Numbered from the stretch's first letter, positions 1 through 11,853 are shown. The stretch is DNA of 11,853 nt from Candidatus Hodarchaeota archaeon (GCA_029856365.1 JAHQWW010000121.1:1-11853); one strand, 5' to 3'. The notes: generated by a model from the letters alone, not told the origin. Made by a program: numbers and translations.

Positions 1-654
1 AAAAAAGAATTACCACAATATGCGCAAGACTATATTGAAATGGTAATAAAACTTACTGCAGACCATGGCCCAGCTGTAAGTGGTGCACACAATGCGATAA
101 TAACAGCTAGAGCTGGTAGAGATCTTATGTCCTCACTGTCGAGTGGAATCTTGACAATTGGTCCCCGATTTGGTGGTGCTATTTCTGATGCAGCCAAGTA
201 TATCAAAGAGGCAGTTGATAAAGGTATGAAACCTGTTGATTTTGTCGACTACATGAAAAATGTTGTAGGGATCAATATCCCTGGGATTGGTCATAGAATA
301 AAGTCGGTCCAGAATCCAGATGTTCGTGTTACACTCCTAAAAGAATTTGTCTTCAAACACTTTGAGAAACATCCACACCTCGATTTTTCTCTAGAAGTAG
401 AGAAAATAACTACTGCCAAGCGAAACAATCTTATCCTGAATGTTGACGGATGTATAGGAATTTGCTTCTTGGATCTCCTTTTAAATCTCGGTTTAACTGA
501 TGATGAGATACAGGATGTAATTGACAGTGAGCTGCTTAACGGATTATTCGTTCTTGGCAGATCTATTGGTATGATGGGGCACATCTTTGACCAGAAACGT
601 CAAAGAGCTGCACTTTATCGCCAACCGTGGGACGAGATTCTGTTTGCGGACTAA
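1..654 (+). CDS. aclA: ATP-citrate lyase large (alpha) subunit, C-terminal citryl-CoA lyase / citrate-synthase-homology domain; 5'-truncated by the window edge
   Basis: Frame is open from base 1 (KKELPQYAQDYIEM...), so the ATG at 40 is internal. ACL-specific motifs: TADHGPAVSGAHN, GPRFGGA, GIGHRIKS..NPD.RV, LEVEKITT.K..NLILNVDG, LNGLFVLGRSIG..GH..DQKR and LYRQPWDEI. Stop TAA at 652-654. Confidence 0.93.
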   Translation, partial: KKELPQYAQDYIEMVIKLTADHGPAVSGAHNAIITARAGRDLMSSLSSGILTIGPRFGGAISDAAKYIKEAVDKGMKPVDFVDYMKNVVGINIPGIGHRIKSVQNPDVRVTLLKEFVFKHFEKHPHLDFSLEVEKITTAKRNNLILNVDGCIGICFLDLLLNLGLTDDEIQDVIDSELLNGLFVLGRSIGMMGHIFDQKRQRAALYRQPWDEILFAD

Positions 655-660
655 AATCCC

Positions 661-674
661 TTTTTTTCTTTTTT
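661..674 (+). terminator. Oligo-T tract, archaeal-type terminator candidate after aclA
   Basis: TTTTTTTCTTTTTT begins 7 nt after the stop codon with no preceding GC hairpin. Confidence 0.5.
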
Positions 675-699
675 AACAAGACCTAAAAATAATTAATTA

Positions 700-736
700 G
701 AAGAAGAATTATAACAATTTAAAAGGCGGTATATTT
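700..736 (+). promoter_or_regulatory. Putative BRE/TATA promoter and ribosome-binding region of icd
   Basis: Purine-rich GAAGAAGAA followed by TTATAA (709-714) about 25 nt upstream of the ATG, a second TTTAAAA at 718-724, and an SD-like AGGCGG at 724-729. Confidence 0.35.
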
Positions 737-1930
737 ATGTCTGAAGAAAATATAAAAAAAGCAACAGAGCATTTTGAAAAACTTGTAAGAGAACAATTAG
801 AACGCGTTGAAAGAATGAAAACTGAGCCAGATTGGACAGATTTCAGCACATTGAAACCTATCATCATCGGTGCATGTGGTGGAGATGGGATTGGGCCTGA
901 AATAACTAAACATGCAGTAAAAATCCTAAACTTTCTTTTAGAAGATGAAATTAAGTCAGGAAAAGTTGAAGTCCGAATGATAGAAGGGTTAACCATCGAA
1001 AACAGAGTTAAAGTAATGAAAGCCATTCCAGACGACGTGCTAGAAGAACTTAAGAAATGTTATGTTATTCTTAAAGGACCTACTACAACTCCTTGGAAGG
1101 GTTCCCCCTGGCCAAACATTGAATCTGCAAACGTGGCTATGCGTCGAGAACTAGACCTTTTTGCTAATGTGCGACCTGTTAGAGTTCCAGAAAAGAACAT
1201 TGATTGGATGTTTTACCGAGAAAATACTGAAGGTGCTTACGTTCTCGGCTCAAAAGGTGTTGAAGTTTCTGATGACTTGGCAATCGACTTCAAAGTTATT
1301 ACAAACCAAGGTTCAGATCGGATTATCCGAGCAGCATTCGAGTATGCGAAGAAGAACAATATCAATAAAGTCACAGTGGTTACGAAAGCCAATGTTGTTA
1401 AAAAAACCGATGGGAAATTTCTTGCAATTGCAGAAGAAGTGGCAAAAGATTATCCAGAAGTAGAATGGGACGATTGGTATATCGATATTATGACAGCCAA
1501 ATTAATAGACCCGGCCCGACAAAGTTCCTTCCGAGTAATTACTGCTCCGAACCTTTATGGTGATATAATTACTGATGAAGCAGCCCAGATTCAAGGAGGA
1601 CTCGGGACAGCAGGTGCAGCTAATATTGGTAAGAGATATTCCATGTTTGAAGCAGTTCATGGTTCAGGTCTTCGAATGGTCGATGAAGGCCGTGTCCAAT
1701 ATGCTGATCCAACTAGCATCATAAAAGCCACTGCTATGCTCTTGAATCACATTGGTTTTACAGCCAAAGCTAACAAATTGGATAAAGCCTTAGATATTTG
1801 CTCCCAATATGAAAAGCGAATTACTTGCACTGGACGAGACACTGGTTGTACTGGTGATGAATTCGCTGATTATATCAATGAGACACTCATAGATCTCAAT
1901 CTGGAAGAGAAATGGCAGAGTTATCAATAA
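737..1930 (+). CDS. icd: Isocitrate dehydrogenase (isocitrate/isopropylmalate dehydrogenase family)
   Basis: Motifs GDGIGPEI; KGPTTTP...ESANVAMRRELDLFANVRP (the Ser-x-Asn-xxx-Arg isocitrate-binding pattern of IDH, not the IPMDH pattern); RENTEGAY; KAN; IDIM; PNLYGDIITD; FEAVHGS. Flanked by ACL and aconitase. Homoisocitrate dehydrogenase activity cannot be fully excluded. Confidence 0.82.
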   Translation: MSEENIKKATEHFEKLVREQLERVERMKTEPDWTDFSTLKPIIIGACGGDGIGPEITKHAVKILNFLLEDEIKSGKVEVRMIEGLTIENRVKVMKAIPDDVLEELKKCYVILKGPTTTPWKGSPWPNIESANVAMRRELDLFANVRPVRVPEKNIDWMFYRENTEGAYVLGSKGVEVSDDLAIDFKVITNQGSDRIIRAAFEYAKKNNINKVTVVTKANVVKKTDGKFLAIAEEVAKDYPEVEWDDWYIDIMTAKLIDPARQSSFRVITAPNLYGDIITDEAAQIQGGLGTAGAANIGKRYSMFEAVHGSGLRMVDEGRVQYADPTSIIKATAMLLNHIGFTAKANKLDKALDICSQYEKRITCTGRDTGCTGDEFADYINETLIDLNLEEKWQSYQ

Positions 1931-1939
1931 ATTCTCTAC

Positions 1940-1947
1940 TTTTTTTT
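1940..1947 (+). terminator. Oligo-T terminator candidate after icd
   Basis: T8 run starting 10 nt after the TAA stop. Confidence 0.5.
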
Positions 1948-1998
1948 ATTTCATTATTATTGAAGAATTATTCTTTTTCTTAAATAATGAATTATTAA

Positions 1999-2227
1999 AT
2001 GAATGAAATCAATACTTCCAATGAAACGGTAAGCAATACAAGGAAACAAAAAAAATGTTATCTCTTATTCTCCTTGAATTTCATGCAATTAAGAATATAA
2101 AAAAAGCAATAACAATACTATGGAACAGTAAATAACTGTACTAACTACTCATATATATAAAAAAATTCCAATAATCACTTATTGGGTATCCTACATACAA
2201 GCTTTAAGATAAGTTATTTATTGTCAT
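1999..2227 (-). pseudogene. Degraded N-terminal fragment of a MASE3-domain membrane sensor gene
   Basis: Minus-strand translation from 2158 reads IYMSS*YSYLLFHSIVIAFFIFLIA*NSRRIRDNIF. After a frameshift in the T8 run (2055-2048) it continues LFPCIAYRFIGSIDFIH. This matches, from recall, the MASE3 start LYxxSLYxYLLFHSLAExFSIVIAxxIFxIAWNSRRxxxNxYFLFLGIAYxFxGxxDxxH. An in-frame ATG lies at 2227, with a further stop 7 codons later. Confidence 0.72.
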
Positions 2228-2297
2228 CGATCTTAATTTACAAAATTCTATAGAGAAGAAATCTCAAAATTAAAAGGATTAAATGTATAATTATTGT

Positions 2298-2304
2298 AAA
2301 AAAA
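2298..2304 (-). terminator. Oligo-T terminator candidate after aconitase
   Basis: The minus strand reads CTTCCCCCACTTTTTTT about 20 nt after the TAA stop. Confidence 0.45.
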
Positions 2305-2324
2305 GTGGGGGAAGTTGATAAAGT

Positions 2325-4259
2325 TTATGTTGAAGCCACTGTGTAACTTAGTTTACCTCCCGTAAGGACTATTTGACGTTCACGTTCAGAGAGATCATAA
2401 GTGGTTTCGATTTCAAATCCTTGAGTCACATTACGAACAATGATTTTTTCATTGTTTTCTAATGCATTCCGTACTCCTTTGATCTCTAGCACATCATTGT
2501 CATTTATTTTATCGTAATCAGCACTGTTAGAAAATGTTAGAGGTAAGATACCGAAATTTACTAGATTATCTCTGTGAATTCGTGCAAAAGACTTTGTAAG
2601 AACAAATTTGACCCCAAGATACATCGGAGCTAATGCTGCGTGTTCCCTACTAGAACCTTGTCCGTAATTTTCTCCACCAATAATAAGACCCCCACCATTT
2701 TCCTTACTTTCTAAAGCTCTTTTAGGAAAAGAAGGATCAACTTGTTCGAAAACATGTTCACTGATCTTAGGGAGGTTTGATCTTAAAGGTAAAATTTCAG
2801 CTCCTGCTGGCATTATATGATCTGTTGTTATATTGTCTTCGACTTTGAGAAGAACTTTAGTGCCAATGAAATCCTCTGGAACTGGTTGAAATTCTGGTAA
2901 TGGCGCAATATTTGGGCCTCTCATAATTTCAACCTCTTCTGGTTTATCAGCTGGTTCAAGAATTAATGAATCATCGATTTCAATAGATGATGGCATTTCT
3001 ATTTTAGGATAATCTCCCAATTTACGTGGATCCGTAAATTCTCCAAATATAGCCGCGGCAACAGCAACTTCTGGACTAACTAGATACGCTTGAGCGCTTT
3101 TGGTTCCACTTCTACCCAGAAAATTCCTGTTAAATGTTCGAACTGTTGTAGCATTTGTCTTTGGTGCGAACCCCATTCCGATACATGGACCGCAAGCTGT
3201 TTCTAATAATCTGGCTCCTGCACTTATCATATCAGTAAGTCCACCAGTTTTAGATAAGTGCATGAGAACTTGCCGTGATCCTGGTGATATGCCTAATACA
3301 GTATTTTGATGTATTTTTCGTCCTTTTAAAAGAGTAGCCACAGTTAGCATATCTTTCAATGAACTATTGGTACAAGATCCGATTGCTACTTGGTCAACTG
3401 TCGTACCATATAATTCTGAAAGTGGTACAACATTACCAGGACTGTGGGGTTTTGCTACTAAGGGTTCAAGTTCTGAGAGATTAATTTCAATTATTTCATC
3501 AAAGTCCTCGTTAGTTCCTTCAGGAATCTCAACCCATTGGTCTTCCCTGTCTTGAAGTTTTAGGAATTCTTTTGTAATTTCGTCTGAAGGAAAAATCGAT
3601 GTTGTTGCACCTGTTTCAGCACCCATATTCGTAATTGTTGCTCGTTCAGGAACAGATAATGTTTTTATTCCTGGACCATAATATTCTAGAATTTTACCTA
3701 CCCCACCTTTCACACCTATTCTACGAAGGACTTCTAGAATGACATCTTTGGCTGAAACGTAATCTTTTAATTCTCCAGTTAATTTCACTCCCACGATCGT
3801 TGGTGTTTTAAGATAAAATGGACCACCACCCATTGCAACTGCGACGTCAAGTCCTCCAGCACCAATGGCTATCGCTCCAGTACCTCCTGCTGTTGGAGTA
3901 TGGGAGTCAGATCCTATTAAAGTCTTACCTGGTCTTGAGAAACGCTCAAGAAATACTTGATGAATTATCCCATTTCCTGGCCGTGAGAATTTTATCCCAT
4001 ATTTAGCAGCAACGCTTTGTAAATAACGATGATCATCAGGATTTTTAAAGTCTGTTTGTAAGGTATTATGGTCTACAACGGATACAGATAATTCAGTTTT
4101 TACTTTATCAAGCCCCATTGCCTCAAATTGTAAATATGCCATTGTTCCAGTTGCATCTTGAGTGACCGTCTGATCGATTCGAATTCCAATTTCTTCTCCA
4201 ACTTCATATTTTCCCTCAACAATGTGTTCTTCTAATATTTTCTTCGCGATTGATCCCAT
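2325..4259 (-). CDS. acnA: Aconitate hydratase (compact ~640-aa single-chain type)
   Basis: Motifs QDATGTMA, DHN, GNGIIHQV, GSDSHTPT and TNMGAETGATTS. [4Fe-4S] ligands in GSCTN and ACGPCIGMG; TFNRNF.GR. C-terminal swivel domain with ITTDHIMPAG and NYGQGSSREHAAL. SD-like GAAGGT upstream. Confidence 0.92.
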   Translation of the reverse strand: MGSIAKKILEEHIVEGKYEVGEEIGIRIDQTVTQDATGTMAYLQFEAMGLDKVKTELSVSVVDHNTLQTDFKNPDDHRYLQSVAAKYGIKFSRPGNGIIHQVFLERFSRPGKTLIGSDSHTPTAGGTGAIAIGAGGLDVAVAMGGGPFYLKTPTIVGVKLTGELKDYVSAKDVILEVLRRIGVKGGVGKILEYYGPGIKTLSVPERATITNMGAETGATTSIFPSDEITKEFLKLQDREDQWVEIPEGTNEDFDEIIEINLSELEPLVAKPHSPGNVVPLSELYGTTVDQVAIGSCTNSSLKDMLTVATLLKGRKIHQNTVLGISPGSRQVLMHLSKTGGLTDMISAGARLLETACGPCIGMGFAPKTNATTVRTFNRNFLGRSGTKSAQAYLVSPEVAVAAAIFGEFTDPRKLGDYPKIEMPSSIEIDDSLILEPADKPEEVEIMRGPNIAPLPEFQPVPEDFIGTKVLLKVEDNITTDHIMPAGAEILPLRSNLPKISEHVFEQVDPSFPKRALESKENGGGLIIGGENYGQGSSREHAALAPMYLGVKFVLTKSFARIHRDNLVNFGILPLTFSNSADYDKINDNDVLEIKGVRNALENNEKIIVRNVTQGFEIETTYDLSERERQIVLTGGKLSYTVAST

Positions 4260-4797: not shown

Positions 4798-7914
<3,117 letters not shown>

Positions 7915-8147: not shown

Positions 8148-8615
8148 GTGAGTAACCAAAAAAGAATCGAATTTTACAAGGATCAAGTTAAGTTAGAGAA
8201 CACAATTGTTGAAAAAGCTGAAAATGCTGTTCGAGGTTTGGAGAACATTCTCATTCGTGAATTGATTCTGGGGATTGCTCTAGACTCAAAAAAGCATGCA
8301 GGTATGTTGAATGCGCTGGTTAGCATTTATACTAAACCAACTCCCTCTGTAGCAGAGGAATTTGGAGATGAACTAAAAAAAGCAATTGCAGAACATATTG
8401 AACTAGAACAGCAAGCTATAGATACTTACCAAGAAAAACTGGAAACATCGGATAACGAAAGTGAGAGAATCATCATTAAAGCAATACTTAACGATGAAAA
8501 AAAACACCATAAACTCTTAACAACAATTCAAAAAATGATTGTGGAGAAACTAACTTTATCAGAAAAGGAATTATGGGAGATGGTAGAAGACAGCTATTTT
8601 GATTTTGGGGAATAG
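8148..8615 (+). CDS. Ferritin-like (rubrerythrin-superfamily) four-helix-bundle protein
   Basis: All-helical 155-aa protein with a two-fold internal repeat: KLE...IALDSKKH and HIELE...ILNDEKKH (E...ExxH di-iron pattern). GTG start; TATA-like TTTATAAA at 8107-8114. Confidence 0.75.
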   Translation: MSNQKRIEFYKDQVKLENTIVEKAENAVRGLENILIRELILGIALDSKKHAGMLNALVSIYTKPTPSVAEEFGDELKKAIAEHIELEQQAIDTYQEKLETSDNESERIIIKAILNDEKKHHKLLTTIQKMIVEKLTLSEKELWEMVEDSYFDFGE

Positions 8616-8804: not shown

Positions 8805-11195
8805 TCAAGCTGTAGCTTTCGCCTCTTTATGGACTACTTCATGGTTTTTTCGAGCAATTTTACTCATTTCTGTGACAACATCTGCAAATTTCTTCCCTTC
8901 GGCAGCAGACATCCATTCAATGATAAACCGTTCATCAGCAATACCTTGTTTTTTCATCCAGCGGCGAATCTTTTTATCACGTTTCAACGCCCAATCATTC
9001 CCAGAAATGTAATGACAGTCTTGAGGATGACAACCAGTCAGCATTACGGCGCCTGCCCCACGTTCAAATGCACGTTTTATAAAATCAACATCGACACGAC
9101 CCGAACACATTGTACGGACAATTCTAGAATTGGTTGGGTACTGAATTCGACTAGTGCCGGCTAGGTCAGCACCTCCGTATGAACACCAGTTACAGGCAAA
9201 GATCATTACTTTCTCTGAGGCGTTGTCTCTAAGGGCAATGTCCACTTGCCGCATGATCATCGCATCTGTAAAATTGGTCATTGTAATAGCATCTTTCGGG
9301 CAATCTGCAGCACATGTTCCACAACCCTTGCATAAGATGGGATTAACATGAGCAGGAGTCTTCTTTTTCTTATCCACACTAATAGCATTGTAAGGACATC
9401 GTTTAGCACAGGTACCGCAGGAATTACAAAGTTCAGCATCAACATAGGCATATAAGGGTGCAACAGTAAACTCTCCTTTAGCAAGCAACCTTGTGACTCG
9501 TCCTGCTGCAGCACTGGCTTGCGTTACACATTCTCGAATGTCTTTCGGAGCTTCTGCACCACCAGCTATGAAAACACCATCAGTCGGAGTATCAACTGGT
9601 TTTAATTTGGGGTGAGCTTCAATATAAAACCCTTTAGGATCACGAGAAACTGGAAATGGAATAGGATATGGTGAACCCTCTGCTCCAACAGAGAGAACCA
9701 CAAGATCAAATTCTTTAGTTAGAAGTTTTCCTGATTGTGTATCTTCAACGGACACGAGAAGATTGTTGTTTCCTGGATTCTCTTCTATCAAACCTGGCCG
9801 GCCACGGATGAAATGGACTCCTTCTTCTCTTGAACGGGTATAAAGCTCTTCGAAACCTTTTCCAAAGGCTCGAATATCCATATAAAACACGGAAATGTCT
9901 ACATCAGGCCAATGCTCTTTAATCAAAAGACTGTCCTTTATAACTTCCATACAACAGAAGTTACTACAGTATGGATTAAATCGAACGTCTCTTGATCCAA
10001 CACAATTGATAAATGCAACACTTTTCGGGGGTTTGAGATCACTCGGGCGGACAAGTTCACCAGAAGTAGGACCAGCTGCATTAATCAATCGTTCAAATTC
10101 GAATGTTGTTACCACATTGGGATAACTTCCCCAACCATATTCTGGTATTTTCGAGGCATCAAAAATCTGAAAACCTGTAGCAATGATTATGGAACCCACT
10201 TTGAAGTTGTAAACCTTTTCAGTGTCTTCATAATTAATAGCCTCTTTATCGCACGTCGTAGTACATTTGCCACATGCTAATGGAGAAAGACCAAGACAGT
10301 TTTCAGTATCTATTAGGTAAGCTGCTGGAACAGATTGGGGATATGGAATATAAATTGCTTTCCTCCAACCTAGGTTACCAGAATATTCATCAATGACATT
10401 TACAGGACAAATGTCAATACAATCATTGCAAGCGGTACAAAGGTCTTCGTCTACATACCGTGGTTGCTTCGTAATAGTGACTTCGAAGTTTCCCACATAC
10501 CCATCGATATGTGTTACCTCCGCACTCGCAATCAAGTTGATATTGGGATGATTACCTACATCAGCCATTTTTGGGCCAAGAATACAGATTGAACAGTCCA
10601 TGGTGGGGAAGGTTTTGTCAATTAACGCCATTTTCCCTCCAATTGTCGGACTTTTCTCGACCATGATGACTTCATAATCATCAGCCAAATCTAACGCAGC
10701 TTGAATTCCCGCTACTCCCCCACCAATGATTAATACTCTTTTCTCAACAGGGACGATGATTTCATCAACAGCTTCTAATAATTCAGCTTTGGCTATTGCC
10801 ATTTCAGTTAATTCTTTGGCTTTTAATGTAGCCTCTTCTTTTTCGTGAAGGTGTACCCAAGAACAATGCTCTCTGATGTTAGCAACCTCAACCACTTCTG
10901 GATTCATTCCAAGACGTCTTAACAAGTTCTTCCACGTTGGAAGATGCAATCTTGGGGAACAGGCAGAGATTACTACTCTTTCTATTCCCTGTTCTTTAAT
11001 GGCTTCTTCGATCTCAACCTGTCCTGGATCTGAACAGGTATAGGTGTTTACCTGCACCAGTTTTACTCCTGGTAACTGCTCAACTTCTTTAGCGATTTCA
11101 TCAATATTGACAGTTCCACCGATATTCTTCCCACATTTACAGAGAAAAACACCAATTTTAGATTCATTTGTTGGTTGATCTACACTTTCGGTCAT
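8805..11195 (-). CDS. hdrA: Heterodisulfide reductase subunit A-like flavoprotein fused to a C-terminal MvhD/FlpD [2Fe-2S] domain
   Basis: N-terminal IGVFLCKCG.NI, TCS..GQ, ACSPR.H and NIREHCSWVH. FAD motif IIGGGVAG; DKTFPTMDCSICIL. Inserted ferredoxin (CTACNDCIDICP; CLG....CGKCTTTC). FEFER; CVGSRD...YCSNFCCMEVIK. C-terminal ferredoxin (CNSCGTCAKRCP, CKGCGTCAADCP). MvhD part: FACNWCSYGGADLAG, RTMCSGRVD, GCHPQDCHY, EWMSAAEG. ATG at 11195 preferred over GTG at 11204 because GTGAT then serves as SD. Confidence 0.93.
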   Translation of the reverse strand: MTESVDQPTNESKIGVFLCKCGKNIGGTVNIDEIAKEVEQLPGVKLVQVNTYTCSDPGQVEIEEAIKEQGIERVVISACSPRLHLPTWKNLLRRLGMNPEVVEVANIREHCSWVHLHEKEEATLKAKELTEMAIAKAELLEAVDEIIVPVEKRVLIIGGGVAGIQAALDLADDYEVIMVEKSPTIGGKMALIDKTFPTMDCSICILGPKMADVGNHPNINLIASAEVTHIDGYVGNFEVTITKQPRYVDEDLCTACNDCIDICPVNVIDEYSGNLGWRKAIYIPYPQSVPAAYLIDTENCLGLSPLACGKCTTTCDKEAINYEDTEKVYNFKVGSIIIATGFQIFDASKIPEYGWGSYPNVVTTFEFERLINAAGPTSGELVRPSDLKPPKSVAFINCVGSRDVRFNPYCSNFCCMEVIKDSLLIKEHWPDVDISVFYMDIRAFGKGFEELYTRSREEGVHFIRGRPGLIEENPGNNNLLVSVEDTQSGKLLTKEFDLVVLSVGAEGSPYPIPFPVSRDPKGFYIEAHPKLKPVDTPTDGVFIAGGAEAPKDIRECVTQASAAAGRVTRLLAKGEFTVAPLYAYVDAELCNSCGTCAKRCPYNAISVDKKKKTPAHVNPILCKGCGTCAADCPKDAITMTNFTDAMIMRQVDIALRDNASEKVMIFACNWCSYGGADLAGTSRIQYPTNSRIVRTMCSGRVDVDFIKRAFERGAGAVMLTGCHPQDCHYISGNDWALKRDKKIRRWMKKQGIADERFIIEWMSAAEGKKFADVVTEMSKIARKNHEVVHKEAKATA

Positions 11196-11213
11196 TGTAA
11201 TCACTTATTACCA

Positions 11214-11852
11214 TCATTTCTTCGTTTTACTTTGTGCAATGTCTATAACACGATCTATTTTCTGAGTAAAACCCTCCCGTTCTGCATGAACGAACTCCCC
11301 GCAAATAATTATACCTTGTTTGAAGTCAAATGTAGCTTCATGGGGTGGACAACTAGTTTTTACTCTAACTTGCTTTTTTAACCATTCTAGCATCGTCACA
11401 GCATCACCAAGCTTGTTCTTACGACCGTATTGGGTAAAACAAGGAGCGAGAACCTCTATGAAACTAAAACCTGGATTATCAAATGCTTTTAGGATGCTTT
11501 TTCGTAATCGAAGCGTGTCGTATCCAGGCCACCTAGCAACATAACTGGCTCCTGCTGCGGCAGCTAGAGAAACTAAGTTAAACGGAGGTTCAATGTTTCC
11601 GTAAGGCGTTGTTGCTGTGAAGTCACCTATTTGAGTCGTTGGAGCTACCTGCCCACCTGTCATTCCATACACATTATTGTTTATACATAGAACAGTTACC
11701 TCCACATTTCTTCTACACGCATGAATGAAATGATTGCCTCCTATTGCAAAGAGATCTCCATCTCCTGAAAGTACAACAACTTCAAGATCGGGATTCGCTA
11801 ATTTTAATCCTGTAGCAAAAGGAATAGCCCTTCCATGTGTAGTATGGAAAGC
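11214..11852 (-). CDS. korB: 2-oxoacid:ferredoxin oxidoreductase beta subunit (2-oxoglutarate synthase KorB-like); 5'-truncated by the window edge
   Basis: Frame is open to the window edge: AFHTTHGRAIPFATGLKLANPDLEVVVLSGDGDLFAIGGNHFIHACRRNVEVTVLCINNNVYGMTGGQVAPTT. This includes the TPP motif GDGD...NN, plus TTPYGN.E.PF and GFSFIEVLAPC. The GTG at 11705 in the ORF track is internal. Substrate assignment is less certain than family. Confidence 0.88.
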   Translation of the reverse strand, partial: AFHTTHGRAIPFATGLKLANPDLEVVVLSGDGDLFAIGGNHFIHACRRNVEVTVLCINNNVYGMTGGQVAPTTQIGDFTATTPYGNIEPPFNLVSLAAAAGASYVARWPGYDTLRLRKSILKAFDNPGFSFIEVLAPCFTQYGRKNKLGDAVTMLEWLKKQVRVKTSCPPHEATFDFKQGIIICGEFVHAEREGFTQKIDRVIDIAQSKTKK

Positions 11853-11853
11853 A

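Follow-up and report, generated by a model that had tools for sequence, protein, structure and literature searches.

A conserved korDAB-hdrA2 operon in Hodarchaeota and a candidate link between 2-oxoglutarate metabolism and HdrA-based electron bifurcation

The window analyzed here (the whole stretch of DNA examined, 11,853 bp) is the complete contig C151 of a fragmented metagenome-assembled genome (MAG) of a “Candidatus Hodarchaeota” archaeon (G000; GCA_029856365.1, JAHQWW010000121.1; 204 contigs; 83.6% complete; 4.2% contamination). Gene identities were obtained from Pfam and NCBIfam profile searches of the open reading frames (ORFs) in the window. Its minus strand carries the 3' part of korB, coding for the beta subunit of a 2-oxoacid:ferredoxin oxidoreductase (OFOR), directly followed by hdrA2, coding for an HdrA protein fused to MvhD (Table 1). 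Judged from gene order in relatives, the operon runs korD-korA-korB-hdrA2 and thus ends with hdrA2, whose product probably forms one assembly with the Kor enzyme. An earlier, sequence-only reading of the window had joined the two genes as a candidate module coupling 2-oxoacid synthesis to electron bifurcation.

Table 1. Features of the window, with positions counted from its first nucleotide
Feature	Position	Strand	Details
aclA, 3' part	1-654	+	First ORF; Pfam/NCBIfam; Ligase_CoA and citrate-synthase domain; subunit AclA of ATP-citrate lyase
icd, isocitrate dehydrogenase	737-1930	+	Pfam/NCBIfam
acn, aconitase	2325-4259	-	Pfam/NCBIfam
Glycoside hydrolase family 2 (GH2) beta-galactosidase, LacZ-type	4798-7905	-	1035 amino acids (aa); all five domains
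Ferritin/rubrerythrin-like ORF	8148-8615	+	155 aa; convergent with hdrA2
T-rich tract	8762-8744	-	16 T in 19 nt; 43 nt past hdrA2 stop
hdrA2 (HdrA-MvhD fusion)	ORF 8805-11204; from ATG 8805-11195	-	
MvhD (FlpD) domain, [2Fe-2S] carrier	8859-9209	-	aa 666-782; PF02662, 154 bits
C-terminal 2x[4Fe-4S] ferredoxin domain	9279-9449	-	aa 586-642; Pfam Fer4/Fer4_21; Cys 593/596/599/603, 625/628/631/635
Lys423 codon	9936-9938	-	Aligns to K409 of 5ODC_A; aligned line ends at K409
Glu371 codon	10092-10094	-	Aligns to E356 of 5ODC_A
Inserted ferredoxin domain	10245-10445	-	aa 254-320; Pfam Fer4_16 aa 256-319; Cys 256/259/262/266, 303/311/314/318
korB-hdrA2 spacer, 18 nt	11196-11213	-	Shine-Dalgarno-like AGTGAT
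korB, 3' fragment	11214-11852	-	C-terminal 212 codons and stop; 5' part lost at contig end

The korB-hdrA2 junction and the end of the operon

The korB stop codon (TGA, 11216-11214) lies 18 nt before the hdrA2 ATG at 11195. The hdrA2 ORF opens at a GTG at 11204 (799 aa), and the conserved start is the ATG at 11195 (796 aa), giving a same-strand gap of 9 to 18 nt depending on which start is used. Nearly all orthologues share the start M-T-E-S, encoded ATG-ACx-GAA-AGT. The 18-nt spacer, TGGTAATAAGTGATTACA, is too short for a terminator or promoter; the AGTGAT within it resembles the GGTGAT Shine-Dalgarno core, and orthologous spacers are a few to ~30 nt long, many with GTGA or GGTGA motifs. At the other end, the hdrA2 stop codon (8807-8805) is followed by the T-rich tract TTTTTCTTTTTAATTTTTT, which then faces the convergent ferritin-like ORF. 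Oligo-T is a termination signal for archaeal RNA polymerase, and the tract is likely the terminator of the operon. No hdrB/C, mvhA/G, fdh, or flx genes were found within the window.

Coordinates and spacer agree with the sequence-only reading, which had placed the korB stop 18 nt from the hdrA ATG with no terminator-like tract between them, had ended the transcript at a T-rich tract facing a convergent gene, and had seen no hdrBC, mvhAG, fdh, or flx genes following. Cotranscription of korB and hdrA2 is suggested by the spacing and by its conservation.

Sequence features of HdrA2

HdrA2 was matched by far best by NCBIfam model NF040770 (HdrA2), at 1082.8 bits over profile positions 1 to 769 of 777. 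In a phmmer comparison with 5ODC_A (E = 2.2e-223), residues 14 to 662 aligned to residues 3 to 654, and the thioredoxin-reductase-like flavin adenine dinucleotide (FAD) domain was present at full length; the MvhD chains of solved structures matched residues 664 to 782 (E = 1e-33 to 1e-38). A GGGVAG motif was found at residue 161, FEFER at residues 368 to 372, and CCMEVIK at residues 417 to 423. The Glu and Lys of the latter two motifs, which had been noted earlier as kept at the bifurcating FAD, indeed fall on E356 and K409 of 5ODC_A, residues that have been named as stabilizing the bifurcating FAD, with K409 contacting FAD N5 (PMC12054007). Both E371 and K423 were invariant across 28 orthologues.

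The N-terminal Fe-S domain and the inserted and C-terminal ferredoxin domains each have their cysteines, and the Pfam matches bear out the earlier statement that both ferredoxin domains and a complete MvhD are present. Cysteines invariant in alignment A1 were those at 22, 24, 57, 82, 256 to 266, 303 to 318, 401 to 418, 593 to 603, and 625 to 635, plus those of MvhD, which are spaced C671-x2-C674-x25-C700-x24-C725-x4-C730; CX2CX25CX24CX4C is the motif quoted for MvhD (PMC5296606). At the level of sequence, HdrA2 keeps every feature of a bifurcating HdrA.

The hdrA2 orthologue of one closed chromosome (G015, CP070760; loci L049/L098) has 639 codons, matches residues 1 to 585 at 93% identity, and is without the C-terminal ferredoxin and MvhD domains, either as a truncated gene or through a sequence error. 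Many distant HdrA2 homologues (bacterial and Bathyarchaeia loci L107-L135) appear as two ORFs split at about residue 200 or were matched with an in-frame TGA, which is consistent with selenocysteine-containing HdrA; the protein encoded in the window has Cys throughout.

The Kor subunits and the rest of the operon

The KorB fragment represents a thiamine pyrophosphate (TPP)-binding beta subunit (Pfam TPP_enzyme_C, PF02775; 116 bits), with a GDG...NN TPP motif visible in the translation, and its best NCBIfam model was NF007207 (2-oxoglutarate ferredoxin oxidoreductase subunit beta). It is 88% identical to the full-length, 289-aa KorB of G009, a closed chromosome (CP070695) in which a complete delta gene and a complete alpha gene, with POR_N and PFOR_II domains, are present and whose HdrA2 is 94% identical to that of the window. 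The operon order in close relatives is korD (94 to 95 aa, 2x[4Fe-4S])-korA (~384 aa)-korB (~289 aa)-hdrA2, and this order was kept in all same-genus loci extending upstream.

The korA, korC, and korD genes, toward which the sequence-only reading had pointed, were found on other contigs of the same MAG. At the 3' end of C129, korD and the first 101 codons of korA are 88% and 89% identical, respectively, to those of G009, and the genes upstream of them are the same neighbors as in G009. On these grounds, C129 and C151 abut across an assembly gap of ~1.1 kb that breaks the kor operon and takes in the middle of korA and the 5' end of korB, the window's korB starting at about codon 80. A circular C129, or a repeat of the same korA, was ruled out: the 5' end of C129 is a different OFOR, 32 to 43% identical. 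There, C129 (1-13541) begins within a two-subunit-type OFOR (fused alpha-gamma plus beta).

The gamma gene korC (PF01558) lies outside the operon, at C74:14742-15305, after an AsnC-type regulator gene, and is 75% identical to a gamma gene lying divergently beside korD in G018 and G020; most other Asgard loci have the order korC-korD-korA-korB-hdrA2. Since a korC orthologue is present, Kor is a normal four-subunit OFOR, and a gamma-less OFOR in which HdrA2 replaces gamma was ruled out by that orthologue and by the korC genes that adjoin korD in G018 and G020 as well as in most of the other Asgard loci. In a region of G009 (L141:5344-8404 = C1:1568343-1571403), ~1.1 kb separates the detached korC from a convergent hdrC-hdrB pair (165 and 290 aa) of the same sizes as a pair on C75 of the window's genome. 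This proximity is not conserved, the C74 korC being without an hdr neighbor.

Kor is likely specific for 2-oxoglutarate. The best models for KorB, KorD, and KorC were 2-oxoglutarate types (Oor/Kor beta, OorD, and OorC), all under their equivalog cutoffs, for which reason the specificity is only inferred; KorA passed only the generic 2-oxoacid alpha model NF006412. Among solved structures, 8YS5 chains were the top or near-top matches of the G009 alpha and beta orthologues (E = 2.5e-80 and 1.3e-61, the latter to 8YS5_C). The assignment is supported by the adjoining tricarboxylic acid (TCA) cycle genes (aclB-aclA-icd / acn in G009).

Conservation of the kor-hdrA2 link

Conservation was assessed in 80 loci encoding HdrA2 relatives, with one genome per species. 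Among loci with HdrA2 at least 70% identical to that of the window (50 loci, 45 with upstream sequence), korB was directly upstream on the same strand in 45 of 45, with gaps of -56 to +32 nt and one outlier of 393 nt. At 51 to 57% identity, a kor gene was found within 7 kb in 17 of 23 loci, in other gene orders. These orders included [Fer4_8 + Pyr_redox_2 flavoprotein]-hdrA2-korD-korA-korB-korC in Bathyarchaeia, korA-korBC-hdrA2-hdrC-hdrB in Deltaproteobacteria, and korABC-hdrA(long)-...-hdrA2 in Thermoplasmata. Because the link survives several different gene orders, it would be hard to explain without functional coupling. The adjacency on which the sequence-only reading depended is thus conserved across genomes, and the korD-korA-korB-hdrA2 order supports treating korB and hdrA-mvhD as one unit.

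In a phylum sample of 300 genomes, close HdrA2 orthologues were present in 14 of 20 genomes of the window's genus, in both genomes of the sister family (2/2), and in 21 of 68 genomes of a family in another Asgard class (77 to 79% identity); the other families of the window's class that were searched yielded none. So patchy a distribution suggests that korDAB-hdrA2 has moved laterally between Asgard lineages. Within the genus, four of five genomes without an HdrA2 orthologue were also without a KorA orthologue, and in the fifth korA lies where a contig ends; relatives do not count as independent cases, and an operon's genes get lost together. In a maximum-likelihood tree of 21 HdrA2 sequences (midpoint rooted for drawing only, the root being unknown), kor-linked lineages fell on both sides, and the clade of a second Asgard family (f11) was nested among them.

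HdrC and HdrB in relatives and in the window's lineage

Within the same HdrA2 clade, hdrC and then hdrB come right after hdrA2 in a genome of the same genus (G016) and at locus L095; these hdrC genes encode 148 to 163 aa (Fer4_8) and the hdrB genes 317 to 322 aa (two CCG domains). An hdrC-hdrB pair also directly follows hdrA2 in the more distant G121/L145 and in Deltaproteobacteria, and family f11 (55 to 57% identity) has hdrA2-hdrC-hdrB without kor genes. The idea of a module intrinsically free of HdrBC is not borne out by these loci. Because hdrC-hdrB follow hdrA2 within the same clade, the window's lineage has probably lost them, a reduced and derived state. The simplest reading of this small sample is an ancestral module of kor, hdrA2, and hdrCB, from which the window's lineage would have lost hdrCB and f11 the kor link. 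In the window's genome, the best HdrB and HdrC matches were paralogues (41 to 43%) on C75, C19, and C73, and the set on C75 follows another hdrA-mvhD.

Predicted contact between HdrA2 and KorD

A complex was modeled from HdrA2 (alignment A1, 28 rows) and KorD (alignment A3, 28 rows), the subunit that carries the exit clusters of four-subunit OFORs. The model scored 0.63, and the best of three controls scored 0.00; 58 of 80 solved complexes and 2 of 110 mismatched pairs attained that mark, counts that hold only roughly here because custom alignments were used. Contact agreement between runs was at least 82%, and the partner predicted local distance difference test (pLDDT) values were at least 77. 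The predicted interface comprises the inserted ferredoxin domain of HdrA2 (264-280 and 304-313, with 304 and 310-313) plus residues 349-390, and residues 3-16, 39-40, and 67-71 of KorD; the cluster-binding loops of the two proteins would therefore face each other. This predicted site corresponds to the low-potential exit of solved HdrA. The model supports HdrA2-KorD binding, and by putting the Kor delta subunit at the low-potential exit of HdrA2 it favors the analogy, drawn earlier from the sequence, with low-potential electron transfer to formylmethanofuran dehydrogenase (Fmd/Fwd).

The HdrA2 loop at 269-280 (N-x-I-D-E-x-S-G-N-L-G-W) was invariant in the kor-linked Asgard clade and differed in the Asgard clade without a kor link, with a charge reversal at 273 and, outside the loop, Ala to Arg at 310.

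Neighboring genes in the window

A TCA cycle block (aclA, icd, and aconitase) occupies positions 1-4259 of the window. The equivalent block of G009, aclB-aclA-icd / acn, is at most 9 kb from korDAB-hdrA2, and there complete aclB (429 aa, Citrate_bind + ATP-grasp) and aclA (612 aa) precede icd (L152:4262-7393). These Hodarchaeales carry an acl-icd-acn-kor island. A search of the window's incomplete genome with PF16114 (ATP-citrate lyase citrate-binding domain) gave no match, and the control was equally without a match, so the result is uninformative; a search with PF02910 (fumarate reductase) gave a single match, on C160, which is not decisive for a reductive versus an oxidative TCA cycle.

The beta-galactosidase gene separates the TCA cycle genes from the kor-hdrA2 operon. 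Its position is kept in the nearest relatives, at 67 to 76% identity versus 83 to 98% for its neighbors; more distant same-genus loci have no beta-galactosidase gene at that position, and there aconitase follows hdrA2. The ferritin-like ORF weakly matched models for ferritin-like cargo of encapsulins (EncB family; 32 bits, well short of the cutoff). In G007, G014, and G017, a gene for a 636-aa methyl-accepting chemotaxis protein is inserted between this ORF and hdrA2.

Proposed assembly and its alternatives

We propose, with a probability of roughly 0.6, that KorDABC and HdrA2 form one assembly, with KorD and the inserted ferredoxin domain connecting the couple 2-oxoglutarate/succinyl-CoA + CO2 to the bifurcating FAD. 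Docking would place the two [4Fe-4S] clusters of KorD on the inserted ferredoxin domain, the low-potential arm of the bifurcating FAD, and the couple would swap electrons with the flavin directly instead of using free ferredoxin as a carrier. Partners encoded outside the operon would be reached from the MvhD domain and from the arm to which HdrC binds in canonical enzymes; candidate mid- or high-potential partners are F420, NAD(P)H, a hydrogenase (by way of MvhD), and a disulfide (by way of borrowed HdrBC). We infer the physical contact from gene linkage and the model, and bifurcation or confurcation from sequence features.

Several observations weigh against this proposal. Relatives in G016, L095, and G121 have hdrCB beside hdrA2, but the window's lineage is without them. 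No orthologue of the kor-linked HdrB was found in G009, G007, G011, or G018 (best match, 48% identity), and three-armed bifurcation would therefore need a borrowed or other partner. HdrA2 narrowly missed the membership cutoff of NF040770 (1082.8 versus 1100 bits), and linkage in a single operon can reflect coregulation through a shared ferredoxin pool. As for the model, KorA and KorB are absent from it, and the KorD arm 3-16, to which many of the predicted contacts belong, may in fact lie against the Kor core; part of the model confidence may be recall, because HdrA-polyferredoxin complexes have been solved (7BKB and the 8RVU/9SW2 series); and the invariance of the 269-280 loop carries little weight at the 73 to 97% overall identity of the clade.

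The direction of electron flow through KorDABC-HdrA2 was also considered. Carboxylation is favored by the nearby ATP-citrate lyase, icd, and acn genes and by a precedent in the Riftia symbiont Endoriftia (PMC11636981). Hodarchaeales in culture are strict anaerobes that degrade peptides, including glutamate, in syntrophy; they have OFORs and NiFe hydrogenases and are reported to be without ferredoxin:NAD+ oxidoreductase and transhydrogenase (bioRxiv 10.1101/2025.02.26.640444); no Hdr or oxoglutarate entries were found in the supplementary text of that isolate preprint. In another Asgard family that has the operon, it adjoins genes for methylmalonyl-CoA mutase, acyl-CoA thioesterase, and ADP-forming acyl-CoA synthetase, which are succinyl-CoA users. 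Given the peptide- and glutamate-degrading relatives and the succinyl-CoA enzymes among the neighbors, 2-oxoglutarate oxidation fits at least as well as carboxylation, and reductive carboxylation is no better supported than oxidation with confurcation. The pairing put forward by the sequence-only reading, with Kor as the coupled partner of HdrA, is supported by the conserved unit, the 2-oxoglutarate-type Kor, and the modeled contact; the carboxylating direction that it named first is not, the lifestyle of the cultures and the succinyl-CoA gene context fitting oxidation equally or better.

A self-contained, HdrBC-free KorDABC-HdrA2 is conceivable, and we regard it with some doubt. Electrons from 2-oxoglutarate (~-500 mV) would enter the FAD via KorD, confurcate with those of a higher-potential donor, and pass either to a carrier of mid potential or, by way of MvhD, to a hydrogenase. 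If true, HdrBC-free confurcation would supply the ferredoxin-to-NAD(P)H/H2 link reported missing in cultured Hodarchaeales, and the same system run in reverse would form 2-oxoglutarate out of succinyl-CoA and CO2 with no need for free ferredoxin of low potential. Kor would in that case be the first example of a TPP enzyme shown to be wired firmly into flavin-based electron bifurcation.

Among the alternatives, the one that survives best, though we consider it unlikely, is coregulation only: the two enzymes would share a soluble ferredoxin, and HdrA2, without touching Kor, would belong to another Hdr complex whose HdrBC-like and MvhAG- or FrhB-like members are encoded elsewhere. Other Hdr components are indeed numerous in the genome (26 matches to the CCG domain, three additional MvhD domains, several paralogues of HdrA, and the hdrA'-mvhD/hdrC/hdrB set on C75), and NiFe hydrogenase genes are present too; in Methanosarcina acetivorans, the partners of HdrA2 are HdrB2C2 and either free ferredoxin or F420H2 (PMC5296606), and a sister Asgard family has hdrA2-hdrC-hdrB without kor genes. 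Coregulation alone would, however, leave unexplained the strictness of the adjacency (45/45, with spacers of a few to ~30 nt), the persistence of the kor linkage through rearrangements in distant phyla, the lack of a similar linkage for other ferredoxin-using enzymes, and an HdrA2-KorD model that passes its controls.

A linear, nonbifurcating wire is less probable still. HdrA2 would hand Kor electrons to a single acceptor (F420, NAD(P)+ via another partner, or a hydrogenase through MvhD), making the whole a ferredoxin-independent 2-oxoglutarate dehydrogenase, much as flavoprotein subunits act in the NADP-dependent KorABC of Azoarcus and in phenylglyoxylate dehydrogenase PadEFGHI. The operon has no gene for HdrBC or another third arm, an orthologous HdrB is missing in close relatives, the Bathyarchaeia partner is an NAD(P)H-type flavoprotein (Pyr_redox_2 + Fer4_8) rather than HdrBC, and the reported lack of ferredoxin:NAD+ oxidoreductase and transhydrogenase in cultured Hodarchaeales would also suit such a wire. 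Yet E371 and K423, the proposed marks of bifurcating HdrA, are kept, as is every cluster of either arm; hdrCB is carried by other members of the clade; and an uncoupled drop from ~-500 mV to a mid-potential carrier would presumably be an energetic loss to a syntroph. That unrelated genes came to lie side by side by chance or as an assembly artifact, which a contig break inside korB in a fragmented MAG might suggest, is refuted by the same junction in two closed chromosomes (CP070695 and CP070760) and dozens of independent assemblies.

Implications of a proposed Kor-HdrA2 assembly

The reaction of 2-oxoglutarate:ferredoxin oxidoreductase is the thermodynamically hardest step of the reductive TCA (rTCA) cycle and a main source of low-potential electrons in anaerobic amino acid catabolism, and the cellular supply and disposal of ~-500 mV electrons is a long-standing question. 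If the proposed assembly of KorDABC and HdrA2 is true, Kor wired to HdrA would represent a bifurcating complex of a new class, a parallel to the Hdr-Fmd super-complexes found in methanogens. Models of energy metabolism in Asgard archaea would then be revised, including those of Hodarchaeales, the proposed closest archaeal relatives of eukaryotes, with a bearing on scenarios for eukaryotic origins that involve syntrophy. The question can be tested with the minimal four-gene form and the cultured Hodarchaeales strains.

Comparison with known systems

No characterized Kor-HdrA complex was found in the literature searched, the sequence-only reading likewise having named none, and the Asgard literature searched gave no description of a Kor-HdrA link; a survey covering HdrA from archaea that metabolize methane does not mention oxoacid partners. 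The idea of Hdr-OFOR coupling has precedent, gene clusters of Endoriftia (PMC11636981) and Syntrophobacter fumaroxidans (PMC5947623) having been interpreted alike. The rTCA cluster of Endoriftia holds aclAB, Hdr-Flx, korABCD, tfrAB, and pntAB, with KorABCD between HdrA and HdrBC; it was read by its authors as flavin-based bifurcation feeding 2-oxoglutarate:ferredoxin oxidoreductase, and coexpression was shown (PMC11636981). The locus described here resembles it in having a four-subunit 2-oxoglutarate:ferredoxin oxidoreductase beside hdrA, together with ATP-citrate lyase and TCA cycle genes. It differs in that flxABCD, hdrBC, tfrAB, and pntAB are absent from the window and from the 20-kb G009 locus, HdrA is fused to MvhD and encoded last in the kor operon, and korC is detached; furthermore, the host belongs to the Asgard archaea, and its cultured relatives live by degrading peptides, not by fixing CO2. 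Both systems are known from genes or expression rather than from biochemistry.

In S. fumaroxidans, HdrAL/POR (Sfum_0012-0018) is listed as a putative joint complex (PMC5947623). There, too, an HdrA-type protein is encoded together with an OFOR; unlike the present operon, the cluster is bacterial, contains HdrL-type NAD(P)H-binding proteins and an annotated pyruvate enzyme, and was undetected in the proteome (PMC5947623). The only characterized HdrA-MvhD fusion is M. acetivorans HdrA2B2C2 (type Ia HdrA), which acts on ferredoxin or F420H2 with CoM-S-S-CoB (PMC5296606). The window's HdrA2 shares with it the fusion of HdrA and MvhD, one FAD, [4Fe-4S] clusters, and one [2Fe-2S] motif, whereas it has no adjacent hdrB2C2, its gene order implies Kor as partner rather than F420H2/CoM-S-S-CoB, and its host is no methanogen.

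In the methanogen super-complexes, low-potential electrons pass internally via a polyferredoxin to the CO2-fixing enzyme (PMC13518236). HdrA2 aligns end to end with the HdrA of MvhAGD-HdrABC and of Fdh/Vhu-Hdr-Fmd/Fwd (5ODC, 7BKB, 8RVU, and 9SW2), including the FAD-site Glu and Lys, and the MvhD chains align as well; the modeled docking of KorD on HdrA2 would follow the same logic as the polyferredoxin transfer in the Hdr-Fmd/Fwd super-complexes. In contrast to those complexes, MvhD is fused here, genes for hydrogenase, Fdh, HdrBC, and Fmd are missing from the operon, and CO2 would be handled by a TPP enzyme as the partner. With OorDABC/KorDABC (8YS5/8YS6; Pyrococcus alpha, 1YD7), the likeness lies in the alpha and beta subunits, which match 8YS5 chains, and the difference in the canonical D-A-B-C order, the fourth position here being taken by hdrA2 rather than by gamma, which is encoded on another contig. 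Set beside these systems, this locus is a strongly conserved, reduced form without HdrBC and Flx, in which MvhD is fused and gamma is detached.

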